From: an uncultured Thermoleophilia bacterium
Lineage (GTDB): Bacteria; Actinomycetota; Thermoleophilia; Gaiellales; Gaiellaceae
Direction: 5' to 3'
Length of the DNA: 64,000 nucleotides
NCBI GenBank assembly: GCA_963711785.1
Contig: CAVQFF010000008.1
Span: 158,672-222,671, forward strand
The position numbers and the translations under genes are program-made. Under the pieces are notes generated by a model, which worked only from the letters and a program-made list of their open reading frames with translations, was not told the DNA's origin and ran no database searches. Position 1 is the first letter of the stretch. Every line of letters begins with the position of its first letter. Below, piece by piece: positions 530 through 50,889 of the stretch.

Positions 530-712
530 CGCGAGGGGATCGGTATGGAGGGCGACCGGCAGGTCTTCTGACTCGAGGCTCCCCCTCCGCCGCCTTCCCA
601 AGCTCGCGCTCAGTGGCCTTGTGGCGGAGGGCAACTCCCCTTACAGCGGCGGGACCGTCCCGGACTTGCACCGGGTTCCCTCACCGTTCGCCCGTTTCGC
701 CGCGAATATAGC
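530..712 (-). promoter_or_regulatory. Cobalamin riboswitch in the 5' leader of the DUF4430 gene
   Basis: The minus-strand sequence contains GGTGAGGGAACCCGGTGCAAGTCCGGGACGGTCCCGCCGCTGTAAGGGGAG, then AAGGCCACTG, TGGGAAGGCG and the B12 box GAGTCAGAAGACCTGCCGG (+ coords 556..573). A CCCTCC at 552..547 can pair with the GGAAGGAGGA SD at 530..521, which would sequester the RBS. Boundaries are approximate. Confidence 0.85.
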
Positions 713-4843: not shown

Positions 4844-5200
4844 ATGATCGATCATGTCGCGATTCCCGTGCGTGACCTTGCTGCGAGCCGAACGTTCTAC
4901 GAGCCGGTGCTCGAGGGACTCGGCGCCAAAGTCCTGACCGAGTGGCCGGGCGGCGTCCTCTTCGGTACCGATGAGGGAATGGTGGCTCTCCGCGAAAGCG
5001 ACCGGGTCGAGCCGCTCCACATCGCGTTCAAGGCCGATCGCCCAGGTGTCGACTTGTTCCACGAGACAGCACTTGCCGCTGGGGGCTCCGACAACGGCCC
5101 GCCGGGCATTCGCGCGGAGTACCACGAGAACTACTACTCCGCCTTCGTGATCGACCCGAACGGGCACAACGTCGAGGCGGTCTGTCACCGACCCGTGTGA
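4844..5200 (+). CDS. VOC/glyoxalase-family protein (118 aa)
   Basis: This is the tail of track ORF 4658..5200. ATG 4844 is preceded by GGAGGAGGAG. MIDHVAIPVRDLAASRTFYEPVLEGLG and YYSAFVIDPNGHNVEAVCH are glyoxalase/bleomycin-resistance fold motifs. Confidence 0.85.
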   Translation: MIDHVAIPVRDLAASRTFYEPVLEGLGAKVLTEWPGGVLFGTDEGMVALRESDRVEPLHIAFKADRPGVDLFHETALAAGGSDNGPPGIRAEYHENYYSAFVIDPNGHNVEAVCHRPV

Positions 5201-5214
5201 GGCCCTGCGGCCAA

Positions 5215-5339
5215 CCGAACTGTGGCCGAACCAGATTCGCTCTCTGAATCTGATTCGCGAGTTTCTCGGGAGGCAGCCGGCAACTCGAAACTCGTGAACC
5301 TGGTTCGGCTACGCCGAATCAGGTTCAGTGGTTGTGGCC
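5215..5339 (+). repeat. Copy A of a 125-nt three-hairpin intergenic repeat (built from core motif CCGAATCAGRTTC)
   Basis: By manual count 110 of 125 positions are identical, without gaps, to the reverse complement of 27808..27932. It contains three stem-loops: CGAACCAGATTCGC/loop/GAATCTGATTCG, CGAGTTTC/20-nt loop with GGGAGG/GAAACTCG, and GAACCTGGTTCGGC/tac/GCCGAATCAGGTTC. It sits between two convergent stop codons and is visibly lower in G+C than its flanks. Confidence 0.85.
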
Positions 5340-5352
5340 GGCGGCGCCGGCG

Positions 5353-7245
5353 TCAAGTGGCTGCGAGCTCCTCGTCCATCACGGTCTGGGGGAAGGCGAC
5401 GATCAGCACCTCGCACGGCGCCTTGCGCAGAACGTAGTCCACGGTCGGTGAGAAGAAGCGTGACTGGCGCCGCCAGCGGGGCGCCGACCCGAGCACGATC
5501 AGGTCGGCGTCGAGCTCGTGCGCGCACTCGACGATCGCAGCGCCGATCGCCCGCGCCCGAACCGTCGTCCCGTCGACGGTCACGGAGTGCTCCGACCCGA
5601 GGAGCCTCGCCTCCACGAGCGACTCCTCGGCCCGTGCATCCTCGTTTTCGAGCGGCGCGTCCAGGGGCAGGTCAAGCGGGACACGGATCACGTGCAGCGC
5701 GTGCACCTGTGCATCCGGATCGCTGGCCAGCTTGATCGCCGTCGCCAGCATCTCCTCCCCGATGATGCCGAGCTTCATCGGCACGAGGATCGACTTGAAC
5801 TGGAGCGTCGCGCCCGCAGGCCGCTCGTCGGGCGCGATCACCTTCTCCATCAGGCCTTCTCCGTGAGCGTGACGGACGGCGACGAACACGACGAGGCCGA
5901 TCGCGAGCCAGACCGGCCCCGCGTAGCGGGCGGCGGGATGGGTCGCCAGCGCGATCACGAAGATCGTGCCCGTCCCGATCGCGCCGACAACTGCAGGCAC
6001 GGGAATCGCCGAGCCGCGAATGCGCACGTTGAGCGGCACGCGGTAGGGGCGCACCAGGTCGGGCTCGCTGATGCGCAGCTTGATCACCGCGAGCTGGGCC
6101 GCGGTGAACGCGATCAGAACACCGAACGAGAACAGGCTCGCCAGGTACGCGACATCATGGTGCAAGAAGGAAGTTGCGATGACGATCCCCGACGAGATGA
6201 CCGCCGCAGCAACGATCGCCTGCGGCGAGACGTGTGCACGGCGGCTGAGCCGCCCGAAGCTGCGCGGCAGCTGGCCGTGCTCTCCGAGCGAGTAGGCGAG
6301 CCGCGCCGAGCCGGAGATCGACGTCGTCACCGCGACCAGGAGGATGAGGGCACCGGTGATCCCGACGTAGAACTCGAGCACCCCTCCGAGGCCGTGTGAG
6401 AGCTGGTCGCCGATGCTGTGAGCGACGCCAAGCAGCGGCGCTCGGATCCACCGGCCCCCGAGCTCCGTCTGCGGGCCGGGAAACGCCGAGAGCGCGACGA
6501 CGGCGATCGCGACGTACATCGTCACCACCGTCGCAATGCCGCCGAACACGGAGCGCGGCAGGTCGACGCCGGGACGCCGCGCCTCCGCCGCGAGGTTGGC
6601 CACGGTCTCGAGGCCGGTGAAGGCGAGCATCGCGAGCGGTAGGGCGAAGGCGAGCGAGTGCCAGGTGGGATGCGTGCCGAGCGACGTGCCGTGCATCAGG
6701 GCGTGCGGGGAGAAGACGAGCGCGAAGCCGAGAATGACGAGCAGCAACTGGGTCAGCAGATCGAGGGCCGGCACGACGATGCCGACGCCGTAGAGTGACG
6801 GACGCCGGACGAGCCGCAACAGTGCCACGGCAGCGATCACGGCAACCGCGACGACGACATCCCACGGGTTGCGATCGAGCGCGGAGACGCCGAGCGCGCC
6901 CGAAAGGTAGTGCGGCAGGAAGAGCGCCGAGAGCGCGATCACGATCAGGTAGTCGAGGAAGAGCGCCCAGCCGGTGAGGAACCCTGCGAGGTCGTTCGAG
7001 GCCCGGCGGACGAAGGTCGCCGCACCGCCCGTCTCGGGCAGAGCCGCAGTGCCTTCCGCGTAGGAGAGCGACACGATCAGGAAGAGCAGGCCGACACCGA
7101 GCAGGACGAGCGGCGTGAAGCCGAGCGCATGGGCGGCGACGATCCCGAGTGCGAAGTAGATCGACGAGGCGATCTCGCCGTACGCGACGGAGAACAGTGC
7201 GCGCGCGTCCAGTTCGCGGCGCAGGCCCGGCAGCTTGCGGGCCAC
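5353..7245 (-). CDS. APC-superfamily permease fused to a C-terminal universal stress protein (USP) domain
   Basis: 630 aa. The N-terminus ALFSVAYGEIASSIYFALGIVAAHALGFTP and about 12 TM segments resemble amino-acid/polyamine/organocation permeases. The C-terminal about 140 aa (FKSILVPMKLG...LIVLGSAPRWRRQSRFFSPTVDYVLRKAPCEVLIV) is USP-like. The start is GTG 7245, with GGAGAAGGAG upstream. Confidence 0.85.
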   Translation of the reverse strand: MARKLPGLRRELDARALFSVAYGEIASSIYFALGIVAAHALGFTPLVLLGVGLLFLIVSLSYAEGTAALPETGGAATFVRRASNDLAGFLTGWALFLDYLIVIALSALFLPHYLSGALGVSALDRNPWDVVVAVAVIAAVALLRLVRRPSLYGVGIVVPALDLLTQLLLVILGFALVFSPHALMHGTSLGTHPTWHSLAFALPLAMLAFTGLETVANLAAEARRPGVDLPRSVFGGIATVVTMYVAIAVVALSAFPGPQTELGGRWIRAPLLGVAHSIGDQLSHGLGGVLEFYVGITGALILLVAVTTSISGSARLAYSLGEHGQLPRSFGRLSRRAHVSPQAIVAAAVISSGIVIATSFLHHDVAYLASLFSFGVLIAFTAAQLAVIKLRISEPDLVRPYRVPLNVRIRGSAIPVPAVVGAIGTGTIFVIALATHPAARYAGPVWLAIGLVVFVAVRHAHGEGLMEKVIAPDERPAGATLQFKSILVPMKLGIIGEEMLATAIKLASDPDAQVHALHVIRVPLDLPLDAPLENEDARAEESLVEARLLGSEHSVTVDGTTVRARAIGAAIVECAHELDADLIVLGSAPRWRRQSRFFSPTVDYVLRKAPCEVLIVAFPQTVMDEELAAT

Positions 7246-26551: not shown

Positions 26552-27787
26552 CTAGATGGGAGCCAGCAGCCGCTCGGCGATGCTCCGCCAGGACCAGCGG
26601 TCGACGACCGCCTGCCGCGCCGCTCGCCGCAGCGTTTCGCGGTCCGCCGGAGAGAGCGCGAGGAGCTCGCGGAGCTTGCGCGCGAGGTCGGCGGCGTCAC
26701 CGGTCTCGAACGACGCAAGGCGGCGAAGGTGCTCGGGATACTCCTCCTCGAGCCCGGCCGCCACTTCGGCCAGCCCCGAGTGACGCGCGACGAGCGGCGG
26801 CGAGCCCGCTGCCGCGGCTTCGGCGGCGACCATTCCGAACGCCTCGGGGAAGATCGAAGGCACGACGGTCGCGTCGGCGAGCGGCAGCAGGTGAACCAGG
26901 TGACGGTGCTCCAACGGGCCGGTGAAGAGCACGCGCGGGGTCGCTGCCGCCTCGAGCACGGGGCGGTAGGGCCCGAAGCCGACGACGACGAGCCGCGCAT
27001 CGATTCCCTTCATCGCCTCGAGCAGCACCTGTACGCCCTTCTGCTCGATCAGCTTGCCGAAGTAGACGACGAGCGGCCCAGGCTCCCGCAGGAACACGTC
27101 GAACCGGTCTGCGTTGCCGTCGTCGGGCAGGCGCTCGTCGCCGCCGTTCGGCGGATCCGCGCGGGCCTCCGCCAGCAGGTCCGCGAGTGCATCGTCCCGG
27201 TCCTGCAGCCTGAACTCGTCGACGTCGACACCCGGCGGCACCTCGACAACCCGGTCCACGTGCCCGACGACATCCTCGAGCACCTCCCGAATGTGCTCCG
27301 ACCCGACGTAGGTCGCCTCGGCCTTCGCGAGCGCCGTTCTCGCCCACTCGCCGAGCTCGGGGCGGCCGCGCATCGAATACTCCAGCTCCGAGCCGTGCGC
27401 CTTGACACGGAACGGCGCACCGCTCGCCGCCCCCACCGGCCCGCCCATCAGCACGTGGTTGGCGAACACGAGGTCGGCGGGCAGAAGCTCCCGCAACGCA
27501 GCGGCGTTCGCCTCCACGTATGCGCATCGCTCGTCCTCGGTGAAGTCCTGGAGGAACTTCGGATTGAGGCCCTCGTAGCGGTCCATGACGAAGGTCGGCA
27601 GCAGACCGCCCGGCAGGTCGACCGCGACCGTCCGCGCGCCGCCGAGGTCGTACTGCTCGGGCGCCCGCTCTTGCGAGACAACGACGACGTCATGCCCGGC
27701 GCGGCTCCACTCGCGCGCCAGCGCGCGGGAGTACACATTCGACCCGGTCCCTCCGAGCAGGTACCCGTGCCAGAGCAGGATCCGCAT
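26552..27787 (-). CDS. Glycosyltransferase family 4
   Basis: The start is taken at ATG 27787 (MRILLWHGYLLGGTGSNVY). The C-terminal GT1 motif is VVPSIFPEAFGMVAAEAAAAGSPPLVARHSGLAEV. The track's N-terminal extension (MNLVRLRRIRFSG...) is translation of repeat copy B. Confidence 0.85.
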   Translation of the reverse strand: MRILLWHGYLLGGTGSNVYSRALAREWSRAGHDVVVVSQERAPEQYDLGGARTVAVDLPGGLLPTFVMDRYEGLNPKFLQDFTEDERCAYVEANAAALRELLPADLVFANHVLMGGPVGAASGAPFRVKAHGSELEYSMRGRPELGEWARTALAKAEATYVGSEHIREVLEDVVGHVDRVVEVPPGVDVDEFRLQDRDDALADLLAEARADPPNGGDERLPDDGNADRFDVFLREPGPLVVYFGKLIEQKGVQVLLEAMKGIDARLVVVGFGPYRPVLEAAATPRVLFTGPLEHRHLVHLLPLADATVVPSIFPEAFGMVAAEAAAAGSPPLVARHSGLAEVAAGLEEEYPEHLRRLASFETGDAADLARKLRELLALSPADRETLRRAARQAVVDRWSWRSIAERLLAPI

Positions 27788-27807
27788 CGACGAGACGCTA
27801 CTCGCAA

Positions 27808-27932
27808 GGCGACTACCACTGAACCTGATTCGGCGCAGCCGTACCAGGTTCACGAGTTTCGAACTGCCAATCGCCTCCCGAGAAACTCGCGAATCAGATT
27901 CGCAGAGCGAATCTGATTCGGTCGCAGTTCGG
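27808..27932 (-). repeat. Copy B (inverted) of the 125-nt three-hairpin repeat
   Basis: Its reverse complement aligns without gaps to 5215..5339. Its first hairpin is perfect (CGAATCAGATTCGC/tct/GCGAATCTGATTCG, 14 bp). It lies 10 nt after the rex stop and 20 nt before the glycosyltransferase start. Confidence 0.85.
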
Positions 27933-27942
27933 GAGAGACGGC

Positions 27943-28593
27943 CTACGCCAGGTGGAAATAGAGCGCGTGCAGGAGCTCGACCGCGGGGTTCGATGTGTGG
28001 ACGGTCACGTCGCTCGGGACGTCCAGCAGGCCTTCGGAGTAGTTGAAGATGATCCGCACGCCGGCGTCGACGAGATCGTCGGCCACCTTCTGGGCAGCTC
28101 CTGCGGGCACCGCGAGCACGCCGACGACGATGTTCTTGTCGCGGACGATGTCCTTGAGCCTGCGCTCGTCCTCGACGGTCGCACCACCGACGTCGGCGCC
28201 GATCACGTCGGGGCTCGAATCGAAGACCGCGGCGATGTTGATGCCGTGCTCGGCGAAGATCGGCGAGCTGGCAATCGCCTGGCCGAGCCGGCCGGCGCCA
28301 ACGAGCGCGATGTTGTGCTGCCCCTGTGTGCGGAGGATCTTGCGAATCTCGGAGAGCAGCGAGTCGATCGAGTAGCCGACACCCCGCTTGCCGAACTTCC
28401 CGAAATTCGAGAGATCGCGGCGAATCTGGGTGGCGTTGATGCTCGTGTAGTCGGCGATCTCCTGCGACGAGATGCGGTCCTTCCCCATCTTCTTGGACTG
28501 GGTCAGCACCTGCAGGTAGCGCGAAAGTCGAGCGGCGACCCCGACCGTGAGCCGGTCAGGAGCGTCGCCCGGAACGGGAGCTTGCAACATCAC
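27943..28593 (-). CDS. rex: Redox-sensing transcriptional repressor Rex
   Basis: RLSRYLQVL...ISSQEIADYTSINATQIRRDLSNFGKFGKRGVGY is a winged helix. IALVGAGRLGQAIA is a Rossmann motif. Confidence 0.9.
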   Translation of the reverse strand: MMLQAPVPGDAPDRLTVGVAARLSRYLQVLTQSKKMGKDRISSQEIADYTSINATQIRRDLSNFGKFGKRGVGYSIDSLLSEIRKILRTQGQHNIALVGAGRLGQAIASSPIFAEHGINIAAVFDSSPDVIGADVGGATVEDERRLKDIVRDKNIVVGVLAVPAGAAQKVADDLVDAGVRIIFNYSEGLLDVPSDVTVHTSNPAVELLHALYFHLA

Positions 28594-48588: not shown

Positions 48589-50469
48589 GTGCGCCGGCTG
48601 GGATTCGTGGTCGCGGCGGCACTCGTCGTCACCGCGCATGCACAGGCGGCGACGCTGACCGTCGTTCCGCAGAACTTCTCCCCGATCAGAGCGACGCTGC
48701 GTGTGTCCGCGCAGCTCTCGCTCGAACGGAAGGTAGGCGTTCGGCTCGTCAAGCTCAACGGAAAACCGGTCGGCTGGATCGTTCCGCCGGCGCGGCGGCG
48801 CACCCTCGCAATCGGCTGGGACGGGCGGATCCGAGGCAGACGCGTCGGGGACGGCAACTACAGGGTCCGGCTCGTCTACGGCTCGAGCGTGCTCGCCACC
48901 ACCGGCCTGCGGATCGATACCCGGCCGCCCCGGCTGTACGAGCTGCACACCGACAACGGCAGCACACCGTTTGCCGGCGACAACGCGCTTCTGACGACCA
49001 TCAGCCCGAACGGCGACGGGTTCCGAGAGCAGGCGAACATCTCGTTCCGGCTCCGGGAAGCAGCGACGGTGACAATGGACGTCACGCGCACCGTCAAGGC
49101 CCCGAGGTCCTTCTTCACGACGACCGAGAGGTTCGGCCGCGGGTGGCACACGCTCACCTGGGCGGCCGCATCGAACCTGAACCCGCGCACATACCTGATC
49201 CGGCTCACAGCCGTGGACGGCACCGGCAACCGCATCGTCTACGGAGCACCCAACGCATTCGTCGGACGCAGTCCTCGCGGCGTCGTCGTGCGCATCCAGG
49301 GCATCGACGCCGGGTTTGCGAAACCGAACTACCTGCCGGGCGACGTCGCACGCATCCACATCGCAACCGATGCGGCGGCGCTCACGGAGCGCGTGTTCCA
49401 GTCGGGGCCGGAGAAAGTGGTCACCTACGCGGACAACCAGTTCGCCGGCGTCGAGGTGGACGAGGGGCCGACGCTGATCGACTGGTCGGCGTGGCAAAAC
49501 GCACCGCACACGATCGCGTTCCGCGTTCCGGACCTGCCGAGCGGCCTCTACTACGTCGAGTTCACCGCTGCGGACGGCCGGGTCGGCTATGCGCCGTTCG
49601 TCGTGCGTCCGGTCATGCTGGGGCAGACGAGCCGTGTGCTCGTCATCCTGCCGACGAACACGTGGCAGGCCTACAACTTCCAGGACGTGAATGGCGACGG
49701 CTACGGCGATACGTGGTACGCCGGTCCGCCGAACCGCACCGTCGACCTCGGACGCACCTACATCGCGCGAGGGCCGCCGCCACGCTTCTACCGGTACGAC
49801 CTCCCGTTCCTGCACTGGCTGTACTGGTCCGGCAAACGAGCGGAGTTCATCTCCGACTCGGACTTCGACAACATCGCGACCGGCGATCAACTCGCGGCGA
49901 GCTACGACCTGATCGTGTTCGAAGGCCACGAGGAGTACGTGCGGCCACACGAGTACGACGTCGTGCAGCGCTTCCGCGACCTCGGCGGCAACCTGATGTT
50001 CCTCTCGGCGAACAACTTCTTCTGGAAGGTGCAGAAGTCGCAGAACAAGCTCGTCAAGATCGGCCGTTGGCGTGACGCAGGACGTCCGGAAGCTGCGCTG
50101 ATCGGCGTCGAGTACCGGGCGAACGACGACGGCCAGCGGCAAGGCCTCTACACCGTGCAAGACAGCGCAGCGACTCCGTGGCTCTGGGACGGAACGGGGC
50201 TGGCGGACGGCTCGACGCTCGGCCAGTTCGTCGGCGGCTACGGGATCGAGATCGACTCCATCGCGCCCGAGTCACCGCCGGGGACGGTGGTCGTCGCGCA
50301 GATTCCCGACCTGCTCGGCCCCGGGCTGACCGCCCAGATGAGCTACTACGAGACGCCGGCCGGCGCCAAGGTGTTCGCCGCAGGGACACTCGACTTCGGC
50401 GGCTCGGCCACCTTCTGGCCGGTGAAGCGCATGCTCGACAACCTCTGGGCGAGACTCAGCCAGCCGTGA
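48589..50469 (+). CDS. Secreted protein: N-terminal Ig-like (FlgD-type) repeats plus a C-terminal N,N-dimethylformamidase-beta-subunit-like domain
   Basis: 626 aa. The signal peptide is [29 protein letters not shown] and [16 protein letters not shown] are Ig-like repeats. [28 protein letters not shown] and [13 protein letters not shown] recall the DMFase large-subunit-like family, from memory. Confidence 0.55.
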
Positions 50470-50470
50470 G

Positions 50471-50510
50471 ACTCATGAATCTGGTCCGGCTTCGCCGAAT
50501 CAGATTCAGG
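50471..50510 (+). repeat. Partial copy C of the intergenic repeat (third hairpin only)
   Basis: actcatGAATCTGGTCCGGCttcGCCGAATCAGATTCagg aligns to positions 86 onward of copy A. It carries a C:G to T:A compensatory pair change in the stem. It lies between two convergent stop codons (50469 and 50518). Confidence 0.7.
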
Positions 50511-50517
50511 CCGAAGG

Positions 50518-50889
50518 TCAGTCGCCCCAGTCGAAGTCGCGAGAGCGCGACCACAGGTTCTCGTCGGAAGGCTGATCCCCGTCCGGCGCGGTGGTTGCGG
50601 CCTCCTCGGTCACATCGAGAGCGGGTGACGATGTGGGCTCGTCGATGAAGGTGTCTTCGGTGGTCGGCCAGTCGAGCGACGTCTCCTCGGCCTCGATCCC
50701 GGGAACACCGTCCATCGTCTCCTCGATCCGCGCCTGCTCCTCCGTCTTGAAGAGCGGATGGTTCTCGAACGGATCGTCGGACATGTACTTCTCAAGCGGC
50801 ATCTCGTGCTCGAGCGCGGCATTACGCCGTTTCAACTCGAGATGGTCCTGAATCACTTGCGCGAACATCGACGGAGCGTCGACGGCCAT
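50518..50889 (-). CDS. Hypothetical acidic protein (123 aa)
   Basis: The start is taken at ATG 50889 with a strong SD (AGGAGGG): MAVDAPSMFAQVIQDHLELKRRNAALEHEMPLEKY, followed by an Asp/Glu/Thr-rich tail. Confidence 0.55.
   Translation of the reverse strand: MAVDAPSMFAQVIQDHLELKRRNAALEHEMPLEKYMSDDPFENHPLFKTEEQARIEETMDGVPGIEAEETSLDWPTTEDTFIDEPTSSPALDVTEEAATTAPDGDQPSDENLWSRSRDFDWGD

Follow-up and report, generated by a model that had tools for sequence, protein, structure and literature searches.

What kind of element occupies positions 5215-5339 of the DNA considered here, a stretch of 64,000 nucleotides (nt) from an uncultured Thermoleophilia bacterium that is referred to below as the window? 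A preliminary description, made from the letters alone, took these 125 nt as one entity, a dispersed repeat of three hairpins resembling known palindromic repeats. We show herein that the basic entity is instead a polar hairpin unit of about 45 nt, commoner as a solo than in the inverted doublet seen at 5215-5339. This unit has been copied among unrelated genes, occurs in inverted doublets and tandem arrays, is gained and lost at orthologous sites, lies at the 3' ends of genes, and has a stem that is kept paired by compensatory changes. The element is probably a lineage-specific, dispersed, hairpin-forming, non-coding repeat of the kind represented by repetitive extragenic palindromic sequences (REP), bacterial interspersed mosaic elements (BIME) and REP doublets forming hairpins (REPIN). 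The family is previously undescribed; it extends a known class and overturns no concept.

The repeat unit and its folding

The sequence at 5215-5339 on the + strand (copy A) and the reverse complement of 27808-27932 (copy B) are identical at 110 of 125 positions without a gap, which reproduces an earlier manual count, and their similarity stops sharply just beyond either end. The partial third copy reported at the same time (copy C) is real: blastn aligns 50471-50509 with 87% identity over 39 nt, the hairpin proper being 50476-50508, and the copy consists of hairpin 3 and a degenerate leader, part of which coincides with the upstream gene's stop codon. Four arms of hairpins 1 and 3 had been described as versions of one 13-nt motif in alternating orientation. 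The repetition of this motif stands: with up to two mismatches, CCGAATCAGRTTC has 16 matches in the window versus 2.7 expected, a number reached in none of 100 shuffles, and 15 of the 16 fall within copies A, B and C, the single outlier lying at 1514. The order of the arms, however, is that of a mirror (M, M', M', M) and not strictly alternating. The element is indeed richer in AT than its surroundings (57% GC, versus 68.5% in the window), and the long copies fold at -57.6 and -63.8 kcal/mol, with z = -4.6 to -6.3 relative to shuffles on either strand.

One genome per species (GTDB set) was searched for an exact 23-nt pattern of hairpin 3, CGGCTNCGCCGAATCAGRTTCAG, which matched 88 stretches from at least 18 metagenome-assembled genomes (MAGs). 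When the 100 instances of the window and the genome loci are compared side by side, the constant part is a unit of about 45 nt and not the 125-mer. The unit starts with an 11-nt leader, CTCGAAACTCG, and continues with one T, the stem arm GAAYCTGGTTCGGC, a 3-nt loop, the stem arm GCCGAATCAGRTTC and an A. Its hairpin comprises 14-15 bp (TGAAYCTGGTTCGGC-NNN-GCCGAATCAGRTTCA), and along the stem and its borders the consensus reads ...GAAACTCG-T-GAAYC...GRTTC-A-G(T)GG. Every stem arm is a 5+1+5 near-palindrome, GAAYC-W-GRTTC, and because the arms themselves are palindromic, the motif matches on both strands.

The 125-nt element of the window is formed by two such units inverted around a variable spacer and is thus a long imperfect palindrome. 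Its "hairpin 2" (CGAGTTTC/GAAACTCG) is made of the leaders of the two inverted units, opposed across the spacer, and is not a structural module of its own; the element is an inverted doublet, and not a three-hairpin RNA complete in itself. Of the two halves of the window copies, the left is a more diverged inverted copy: GATTCG-CGAGTTTC, when reverse-complemented, gives GAAACTCG-CGAATC, where the right unit has GAAACTCG-TGAAYC. The final census comprises 123 solo or other units, 54 doublets of the arrangement seen in the window (type 1), 24 doublets of types 2 and 3, and tandem arrays with periods of 97-137 nt. In type-2/3 doublets, the left half reads GGAATCTGATTCGCGAAGCGAACCAGATTCC-CGAGTTGC or TCGACTCTGATTCGCGCAGCGAACCAGAGTCG; the left halves of type 2 are clean reverse complements of leader and hairpin, and score 45-54 bits on the opposite strand with R1, a covariance model built on the unit. 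The doublet types have distinct conserved spacers, and extra flanking motifs also occur.

The preliminary description had proposed covariation as a check on the fold. To R1 were aligned 144 distinct matches, about 100 of which had been ascertained by the exact 3'-arm pattern, so that the informative variation resides mostly in the 5' arm and in some 45 extra matches. In hairpin 3, 99.2% of the cells are paired, and 7 of the 15 pairs show two-sided compensatory changes; the closing pair, for example, is UA in 106 sequences, CG in 23 and GC in 13, and pair 29-100 is UA in 72, UG in 35 and CG in 32. These pairing values are reached by none of 500 shuffles, and no slid register comes close. All three stem-loops fold as originally stated. 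In the alignment of copies, hairpin 2 has no compensatory pair, its variants break the pairing, and RNAalifold does not recover it, even though its stem sequence is conserved.

Nearly all sequences of hairpin 3 (132 of 144) have a G.U wobble, and hairpin 1 of type-1 doublets carries on the same strand a mirrored C.A (pair 58-81, in 23 of 41 copies), which corresponds to a G.U on the opposite strand. The hairpins within a doublet are therefore of opposite polarity, as would be expected if a single polar unit had been duplicated in inverted orientation as DNA, and not if one RNA had been selected for three hairpins.

Distribution, genomic placement and turnover

Every one of the 88 stretches belongs to a MAG that carries the label Thermoleophilia, Gaiellaceae or unclassified Actinomycetota; the highest count, about 21 exact-core matches, is that of a MAG of 3.27 Mb (MFD05537.bin.1.28). 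More diverged copies were recovered with the covariance model, and a second, related pattern matched at least 120 metagenome contigs. Among the metagenome matches listed, 34 of 137 are no more than 120 nt away from the end of a contig, as is expected of repeats that break assemblies. Altogether, the loci examined comprise the window and 208 others (1.2 Mb). They contain 237 exact matches to the patterns, of which the window and the genome loci together account for 100 and the metagenome loci for 137. The family is lineage-specific to Thermoleophilia (Gaiellales-like), uncultured soil organisms.

The repeat had not been recognized when first noticed, and it resembles no family in the collections consulted. 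Searches of Rfam with the element and ten related loci, at gathering and permissive thresholds, gave best matches to the repeat of 13.5 bits (E = 2.1), which is chance level; the only Rfam matches found were tRNAs and a cobalamin riboswitch, and apart from the latter (RF00174, window positions 541-703 on the - strand, 97.4 bits) no family attains its gathering score in the window. Plasmid and phage collections contained no match to the repeat, and the searchable literature mentions neither the sequence nor such repeats in the Thermoleophilia lineage. With many further copies in the genomes of relatives, where the preliminary description had suggested seeking them, covariation in hairpin 3 and no match in Rfam, the proposal of a novel repeat family stands.

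The intergenic placement noted at first in the window extends to the family, since 97 of 100 pattern copies are intergenic; here and in the counts that follow, gene positions were taken from a crude open reading frame (ORF) caller based on GC content at third codon positions (GC3). For the genomic context, all loci were used and orthologous sites were collapsed into 74 clusters. By these calls, 27 clusters lie between convergent, 42 between co-directional and 5 between divergent genes, compared with 125, 261 and 123, respectively, of the background intergenic regions. Such an excess of convergent and deficit of divergent sites indicates that promoter regions are avoided and the 3' ends of genes preferred; the distance between the repeat and a stop codon is typically in the tens of nucleotides. 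Where the genes are co-directional, the unit lies antisense to them at 29 sites and sense at 13 (p = 0.02). The repeat can also supply the stop codon of the upstream gene: at locus L027 (352-382), an ORF enters the leader, where the TGA of CTCGTGAA terminates it, and the orthologue of this gene at L034 (6051-6080) stops earlier, at a TAG.

Comparison of orthologous sites reveals gain and loss. One site holds a doublet at L004, is empty at L034 (a 19-nt gap), and carries an unrelated insert of 310 nt at L027; another holds a solo unit plus spacer at L047 and an array at L044, and is empty at L073. Within a single MAG (MFD02134.bin.1.147), L061 (2997-3230) and L082 (3340-3820) have flanks that are 100% identical and contain two and four tandem 125-nt copies, respectively, which represents either a strain-level polymorphism in array copy number or an assembly variant. 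Several sites are occupied across species, and the site of copy B, downstream of rex, is also filled at L011 and in metagenome contig L132. At L054 (1194-1279 onward), a tandem array of doublets begins directly after a tRNA-Leu(CAA) gene.

The three copies in the window are all intergenic and, as first reported, two of them (A and C) lie between convergent stops. Copy A, a full inverted doublet of 125 nt on the + strand, has on its two sides a glyoxalase-family gene (stop at 5200, + strand) and an APC-permease/Usp gene (stop at 5353, - strand). Its left unit is inverted (5227-5265, - strand), with the arms of hairpin 1 at 5227-5239 and 5245-5257, followed at 5258-5265 by CGAGTTTC, the reverse complement of the leader; a C.A mismatch in hairpin 1 on the + strand is a G.U on the - strand, and R1 matches 5221-5280 on the - strand with 31.3 bits. 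The central spacer with GGGAGG, i.e. the loop of hairpin 2 (5266-5283, + strand), varies in length and sequence among copies. The leader CTCGAAACTCG of the right unit (5284-5294, + strand) is kept even in solo units, which have no partner for a hairpin 2, and hairpin 3 (5295-5327, + strand) consists of a 15-bp stem (TGAACCTGGTTCGGC/GCCGAATCAGGTTCA) with a 3-nt loop and the conserved G.U wobble.

Copy B, a full inverted doublet on the - strand (27808-27932), lies in sense orientation between the co-directional genes rex (stop at 27943) and that of a GT4 glycosyltransferase (start at about 27790). Its hairpin 3 (27820-27852, - strand) was located by sequence, motif scan and covariance model, and its hairpin 1 (27890-27920, - strand) is a perfect 14-bp stem. 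The longest ORF of the glycosyltransferase (26552-27853, - strand), with a GTG at 27853 and the N-terminus MNLVRLRRIRFSG, extends into copy B; the true start is probably the ATG near 27790, and such repeats can thus be a source of over-extended gene calls. Copy C is a solo unit (50467-50508, + strand) with the degenerate leader TGAGACTCA at 50467-50475 and hairpin 3 at 50476-50508. It is placed between a DMFA2_C-like gene, whose TGA (50467-50469) its leader overlaps, and a convergent uncharacterised gene with its stop at 50518.

Two leads from the window were rejected. A resemblance of the copy after rex to a Rex operator (GTGAA...TTC) was dismissed by inspection, as it concerns one half-site only and most copies are unrelated to rex. 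A link to GANTC (CcrM/HinfI-type) was likewise rejected: GANTC is mildly depleted in the window (185 observed versus 248±15 in second-order Markov simulations), and 12 of the 185 lie inside the three repeat copies, but the depletion explains nothing about the element.

Origin of the repeat and rival explanations

Units multiply and are lost as DNA; this outcome is observed, and for its mechanism we infer two possible routes. The unit may be spread by a trans-acting enzyme that is encoded elsewhere and acts on the folded single strand, after the paradigm of the REP-associated tyrosine transposases (RAYT) and of IS200, in which case the conserved leader and the fixed G.T would be its recognition features. 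Alternatively, replication slippage and recombination between copies may spread it, and the arrays and copy-number variants indicate that slippage or recombination at least contributes. Copies would then stay where the harm is small, directly after stops and chiefly between convergent genes. A strong hairpin would thereby be transcribed into the 3' end (3' untranslated region, UTR) of neighbouring mRNAs, where, by analogy with what has been proposed for REPs, it would most plausibly serve as a barrier to 3'-exonucleases, or as a site of pausing and a weak or partial terminator. The antisense bias would place CGAGUUUCGAG after the hairpin in the mRNA, the sole terminator-like feature.

Several results weigh against a repeat of the REP/BIME/REPIN kind. 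No homologue of RAYT or IS200 was found by tblastn, phmmer or hmmsearch in the window and the 208 loci (E > 2 throughout), so that the RAYT search proposed at the outset came up empty; a distant Y1 transposase could have escaped, as the queries were the E. coli RAYT verified against PDB 4ER8, an IS200 sequence, and a hidden Markov model of 120 enterobacterial RAYTs, which are all close homologues and therefore add little reach. No gene family recurs next to the repeat across the genome loci. Pfam checks of 20 selected ORFs gave no transposase, DDE transposases having had no systematic search, and the neighbours and the low-GC3 ORFs in gene-poor gaps belong to ordinary families only (ABC, LuxR, MarR, LanC, Mur ligase and others). 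The GTAG tag is absent beside the stem on either strand, and the CGTC tag is absent as well, the stem foot being CTCGTG or CTCGCG, so that the repeat is not a REP in the strict sense. No target-site duplication can be defined in alignments of filled and empty sites, and no U-tract or terminator signature follows the hairpins, with no terminator-like call at copies A and B. As a possible sign of selection, a higher conservation of orthologous sites was considered and set aside as uninformative, because copies had been ascertained on the exact 23-nt pattern; with the ascertained positions discounted, conservation in orthologous copies does not exceed that of the flanking DNA, and purifying selection on a function is thus unsupported. 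The crude calling of gene positions is a further weakness.

Placement speaks for an explanation without mobility, in which the unit is a dedicated cis-acting RNA element, either a factor-assisted or bidirectional terminator or a stabilizer of the 3' UTR, and its repetition reflects selection at many gene ends. Convergent sites are enriched and divergent ones avoided, and solo units between convergent genes lie at a median of about 35-38 nt from the stops on both sides. The antisense excess in co-directional contexts (29:13, p = 0.02) yields a hairpin followed by CGAGUUUCGAG, the only tail that contains U, and in doublets either incoming polymerase meets a hairpin and then CGAGUUUC, a symmetric design; the compensatory support for the hairpin is strong as well. 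Yet there is no U-tract, no canonical terminator is called, and the preferred orientation gives the mRNA the weaker, A.C-mismatched hairpin. Arrays of three to four or more copies and presence/absence polymorphism are unexpected for tailored terminators, orthologous sites show no extra conservation, and one nucleotide sequence is reused at unrelated genes, which argues for copying rather than convergent evolution. We therefore regard a dedicated RNA element as unlikely, although it retains an appreciable chance of being correct. Another idea is that the repeat is an array of binding sites in duplex DNA for a dimeric protein (nucleoid-associated, a regulator, or related to restriction/modification) that reads the 11-bp palindrome GAAYC-N-GRTTC. 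Each arm is a 5+1+5 palindrome, so that a hairpin would hold two sites at a spacing of 18 bp, and a doublet four; the arm sequence itself is highly conserved beyond its pairing, and a sister family in the same genomes has the same grammar with another palindrome, GGTACC-W-GGTACC. But compensatory changes keep the stem paired, even at a base pair outside the palindrome (UA 106, CG 23, GC 13), and this points to a folded single strand. Since, in addition, isolated single sites are essentially absent (one or two chance-level matches in 64 kb), the sites avoid promoters, and no candidate binding protein was identified, we consider such an array improbable.

A conventional transposable element of the miniature inverted-repeat type (MITE), that is, a deletion derivative of a DDE-type insertion sequence (IS) with the outer hairpin arms as terminal inverted repeats, would account for a length of 125-190 nt, for presence/absence polymorphism and for the breaking of assemblies, and the doublet, being a long imperfect palindrome, has ends that look like inverted repeats. 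It is nonetheless decidedly improbable, because the commonest form is a solo 45-nt unit without a second end, no target-site duplication was found, and the direct repeats flanking long-form copies are a separate repeat that is also found alone. Neither a parent IS nor a recurrent neighbour family was seen across the genome loci, and no transposase occurs in the 20 ORFs checked with Pfam, the search of all 208 loci having covered RAYT/IS200 types only. Hardly any weight can be given to a small gene, whether for a small RNA or for a peptide of about 30 amino acids (..PNQIRSLNLIREFLGR..). Some long-form copies do contain an ATG-initiated frame of 32 codons, and the fold is stable, but 25 of 41 copies lack an in-frame start, and spacer indels disrupt the frame and give it a different stop, so that the peptide reading is already largely refuted. 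Furthermore, no promoter-like site was found, no Rfam family matches the repeat, and it occurs in both orientations relative to neighbouring genes.

Co-resident repeats and known repeat systems

The same genomes contain a second family of hairpin repeats, GGTACCTGGTACC-loop-GGTACCAGGTACC, often after GGTTCGAAGGATC, at L020:4528-4570, L027:2426-2470, L073:1249, L132:238 and L144:1703; at L132, it adjoins the rex-downstream copy of the main element. Its arm is a 13-nt palindrome, GGTACC-W-GGTACC, and it shares with the GAAYC-W-GRTTC family a grammar of nested palindromes, in which the hairpin arms are palindromes of 11-13 bp whose middle base is T on the 5' side and A on the 3' side. A third repeat of about 30 nt, CTGGGCCAGYGTTCGGGAATGNCCCCTGAGCG, is found alone or as imperfect direct repeats flanking long-form type-1 doublets (L007:2930, L008:1765, L069(-):5969, L111:1093/1575/1716, L144:3993/4475/4616, L043:7181 and L048:4341). 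Its presence on both sides makes the long-form doublets look about 190 nt long. It has no match in Rfam, and it may represent a preferred target or one more module of the mosaic.

A bolder reading, which we hold to be unlikely, is that Thermoleophilia possess a RAYT-independent repeat system with at least two co-resident families of nested palindromes. Such a system would imply either a novel family of sequence-specific proteins that recognize or mobilize these hairpins or a new way in which repeats arise; in this high-GC lineage, the repeats might also have been recruited as U-tract-less, orientation-biased signals of transcript ends. To our knowledge, nearly all work on REP/REPIN-type repeats concerns Proteobacteria, in which they are explained by a dedicated RAYT. 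The hosts considered here are uncultured yet globally common soil actinobacteria, and we know of little understanding of transcription terminators in this group. An abundant, structurally supported family that has no canonical tag, and near which no RAYT was found, provides a test case for RAYT-less origin and persistence, and the repeat may be a source of RNA structure at transcript 3' ends in Thermoleophilia. For annotation, the covariance model helps to avoid ORFs mis-called over a copy, and copies flag the places where contigs of Thermoleophilia MAGs break.

Among known systems, intrinsic terminators share with the repeat a stable hairpin just after stops, often between convergent genes, but the Thermoleophilia hairpin lacks a U-tract, has an identical sequence genome-wide and forms tandem arrays. 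Elements of the ERIC/IRU type (enterobacterial repetitive intergenic consensus/intergenic repeat unit) have orientation-dependent effects on mRNA. These elements (about 127 bp), Correia elements and other MITEs resemble the 125-nt element in size, in being long imperfect palindromes, in their intergenic location and probably in co-transcription. Unlike them, the Thermoleophilia element is built from a smaller, autonomous-looking unit that occurs solo, and it has no signature of terminal inverted repeats plus target-site duplication; this separation was made by description, and searches of Rfam and of plasmid and phage collections gave nothing.

The closest analogues, as the preliminary description had suspected, are REP/BIME-type elements. 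Classical REPs are extragenic imperfect palindromes of 20-40 bp, present in many copies, with a GTAG at one end that is the cleavage site of RAYT. In REPIN-RAYT systems, a single-copy gene for RAYT, a HUH Y1 transposase, is flanked by repeats. Binding of IHF, DNA gyrase or Pol I is a trait of BIMEs. Like REPs and BIMEs, the present repeats are short, high-copy, extragenic imperfect palindromes (the hairpin measures 33 nt) with polar units, a conserved mismatch or wobble, and a location at gene 3' ends. They differ from them in having no GTAG (the stem foot is CTCG-T or CTCG-C), an 11-nt leader and self-palindromic arms, and in their host, a member of Actinomycetota, class Thermoleophilia, rather than of Enterobacteria or Pseudomonas, with no RAYT found nearby.

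BIMEs are defined as mosaics of units in alternating orientation with linker motifs (PMC2817692), and the Thermoleophilia repeats likewise form mosaics of units in alternating orientation, with several conserved spacers and array periods of 97-137 nt. The inverted doublets with spacer (54 of type 1, 24 of types 2 and 3) match the definition of REPINs by Bertels and Rainey (PMC3337134). The solos resemble REP singlets or decayed REPINs, and copies are often kept at orthologous sites across species. In Thermoleophilia, however, solos outnumber doublets, tandem arrays are common, and no RAYT/IS200-like gene was detected in the 1.2 Mb around the 237 exact matches. Roles in termination and mRNA stabilization have been proposed for REPs (PMC3733652). 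The closest precedent is provided by the CGTC-tagged palindromic repeats of Di Nocera et al. (2013), described in a paper that nowhere mentions Actinobacteria (PMC3733652). The nearest string to their tag in the Thermoleophilia unit is CTCGTG. Those repeats are REP-like stem-loops of which the family "apparently lack[s] a dedicated transposase" (PMC3733652), and the Thermoleophilia repeats are likewise a family of REP-like stem-loops without a known dedicated transposase.

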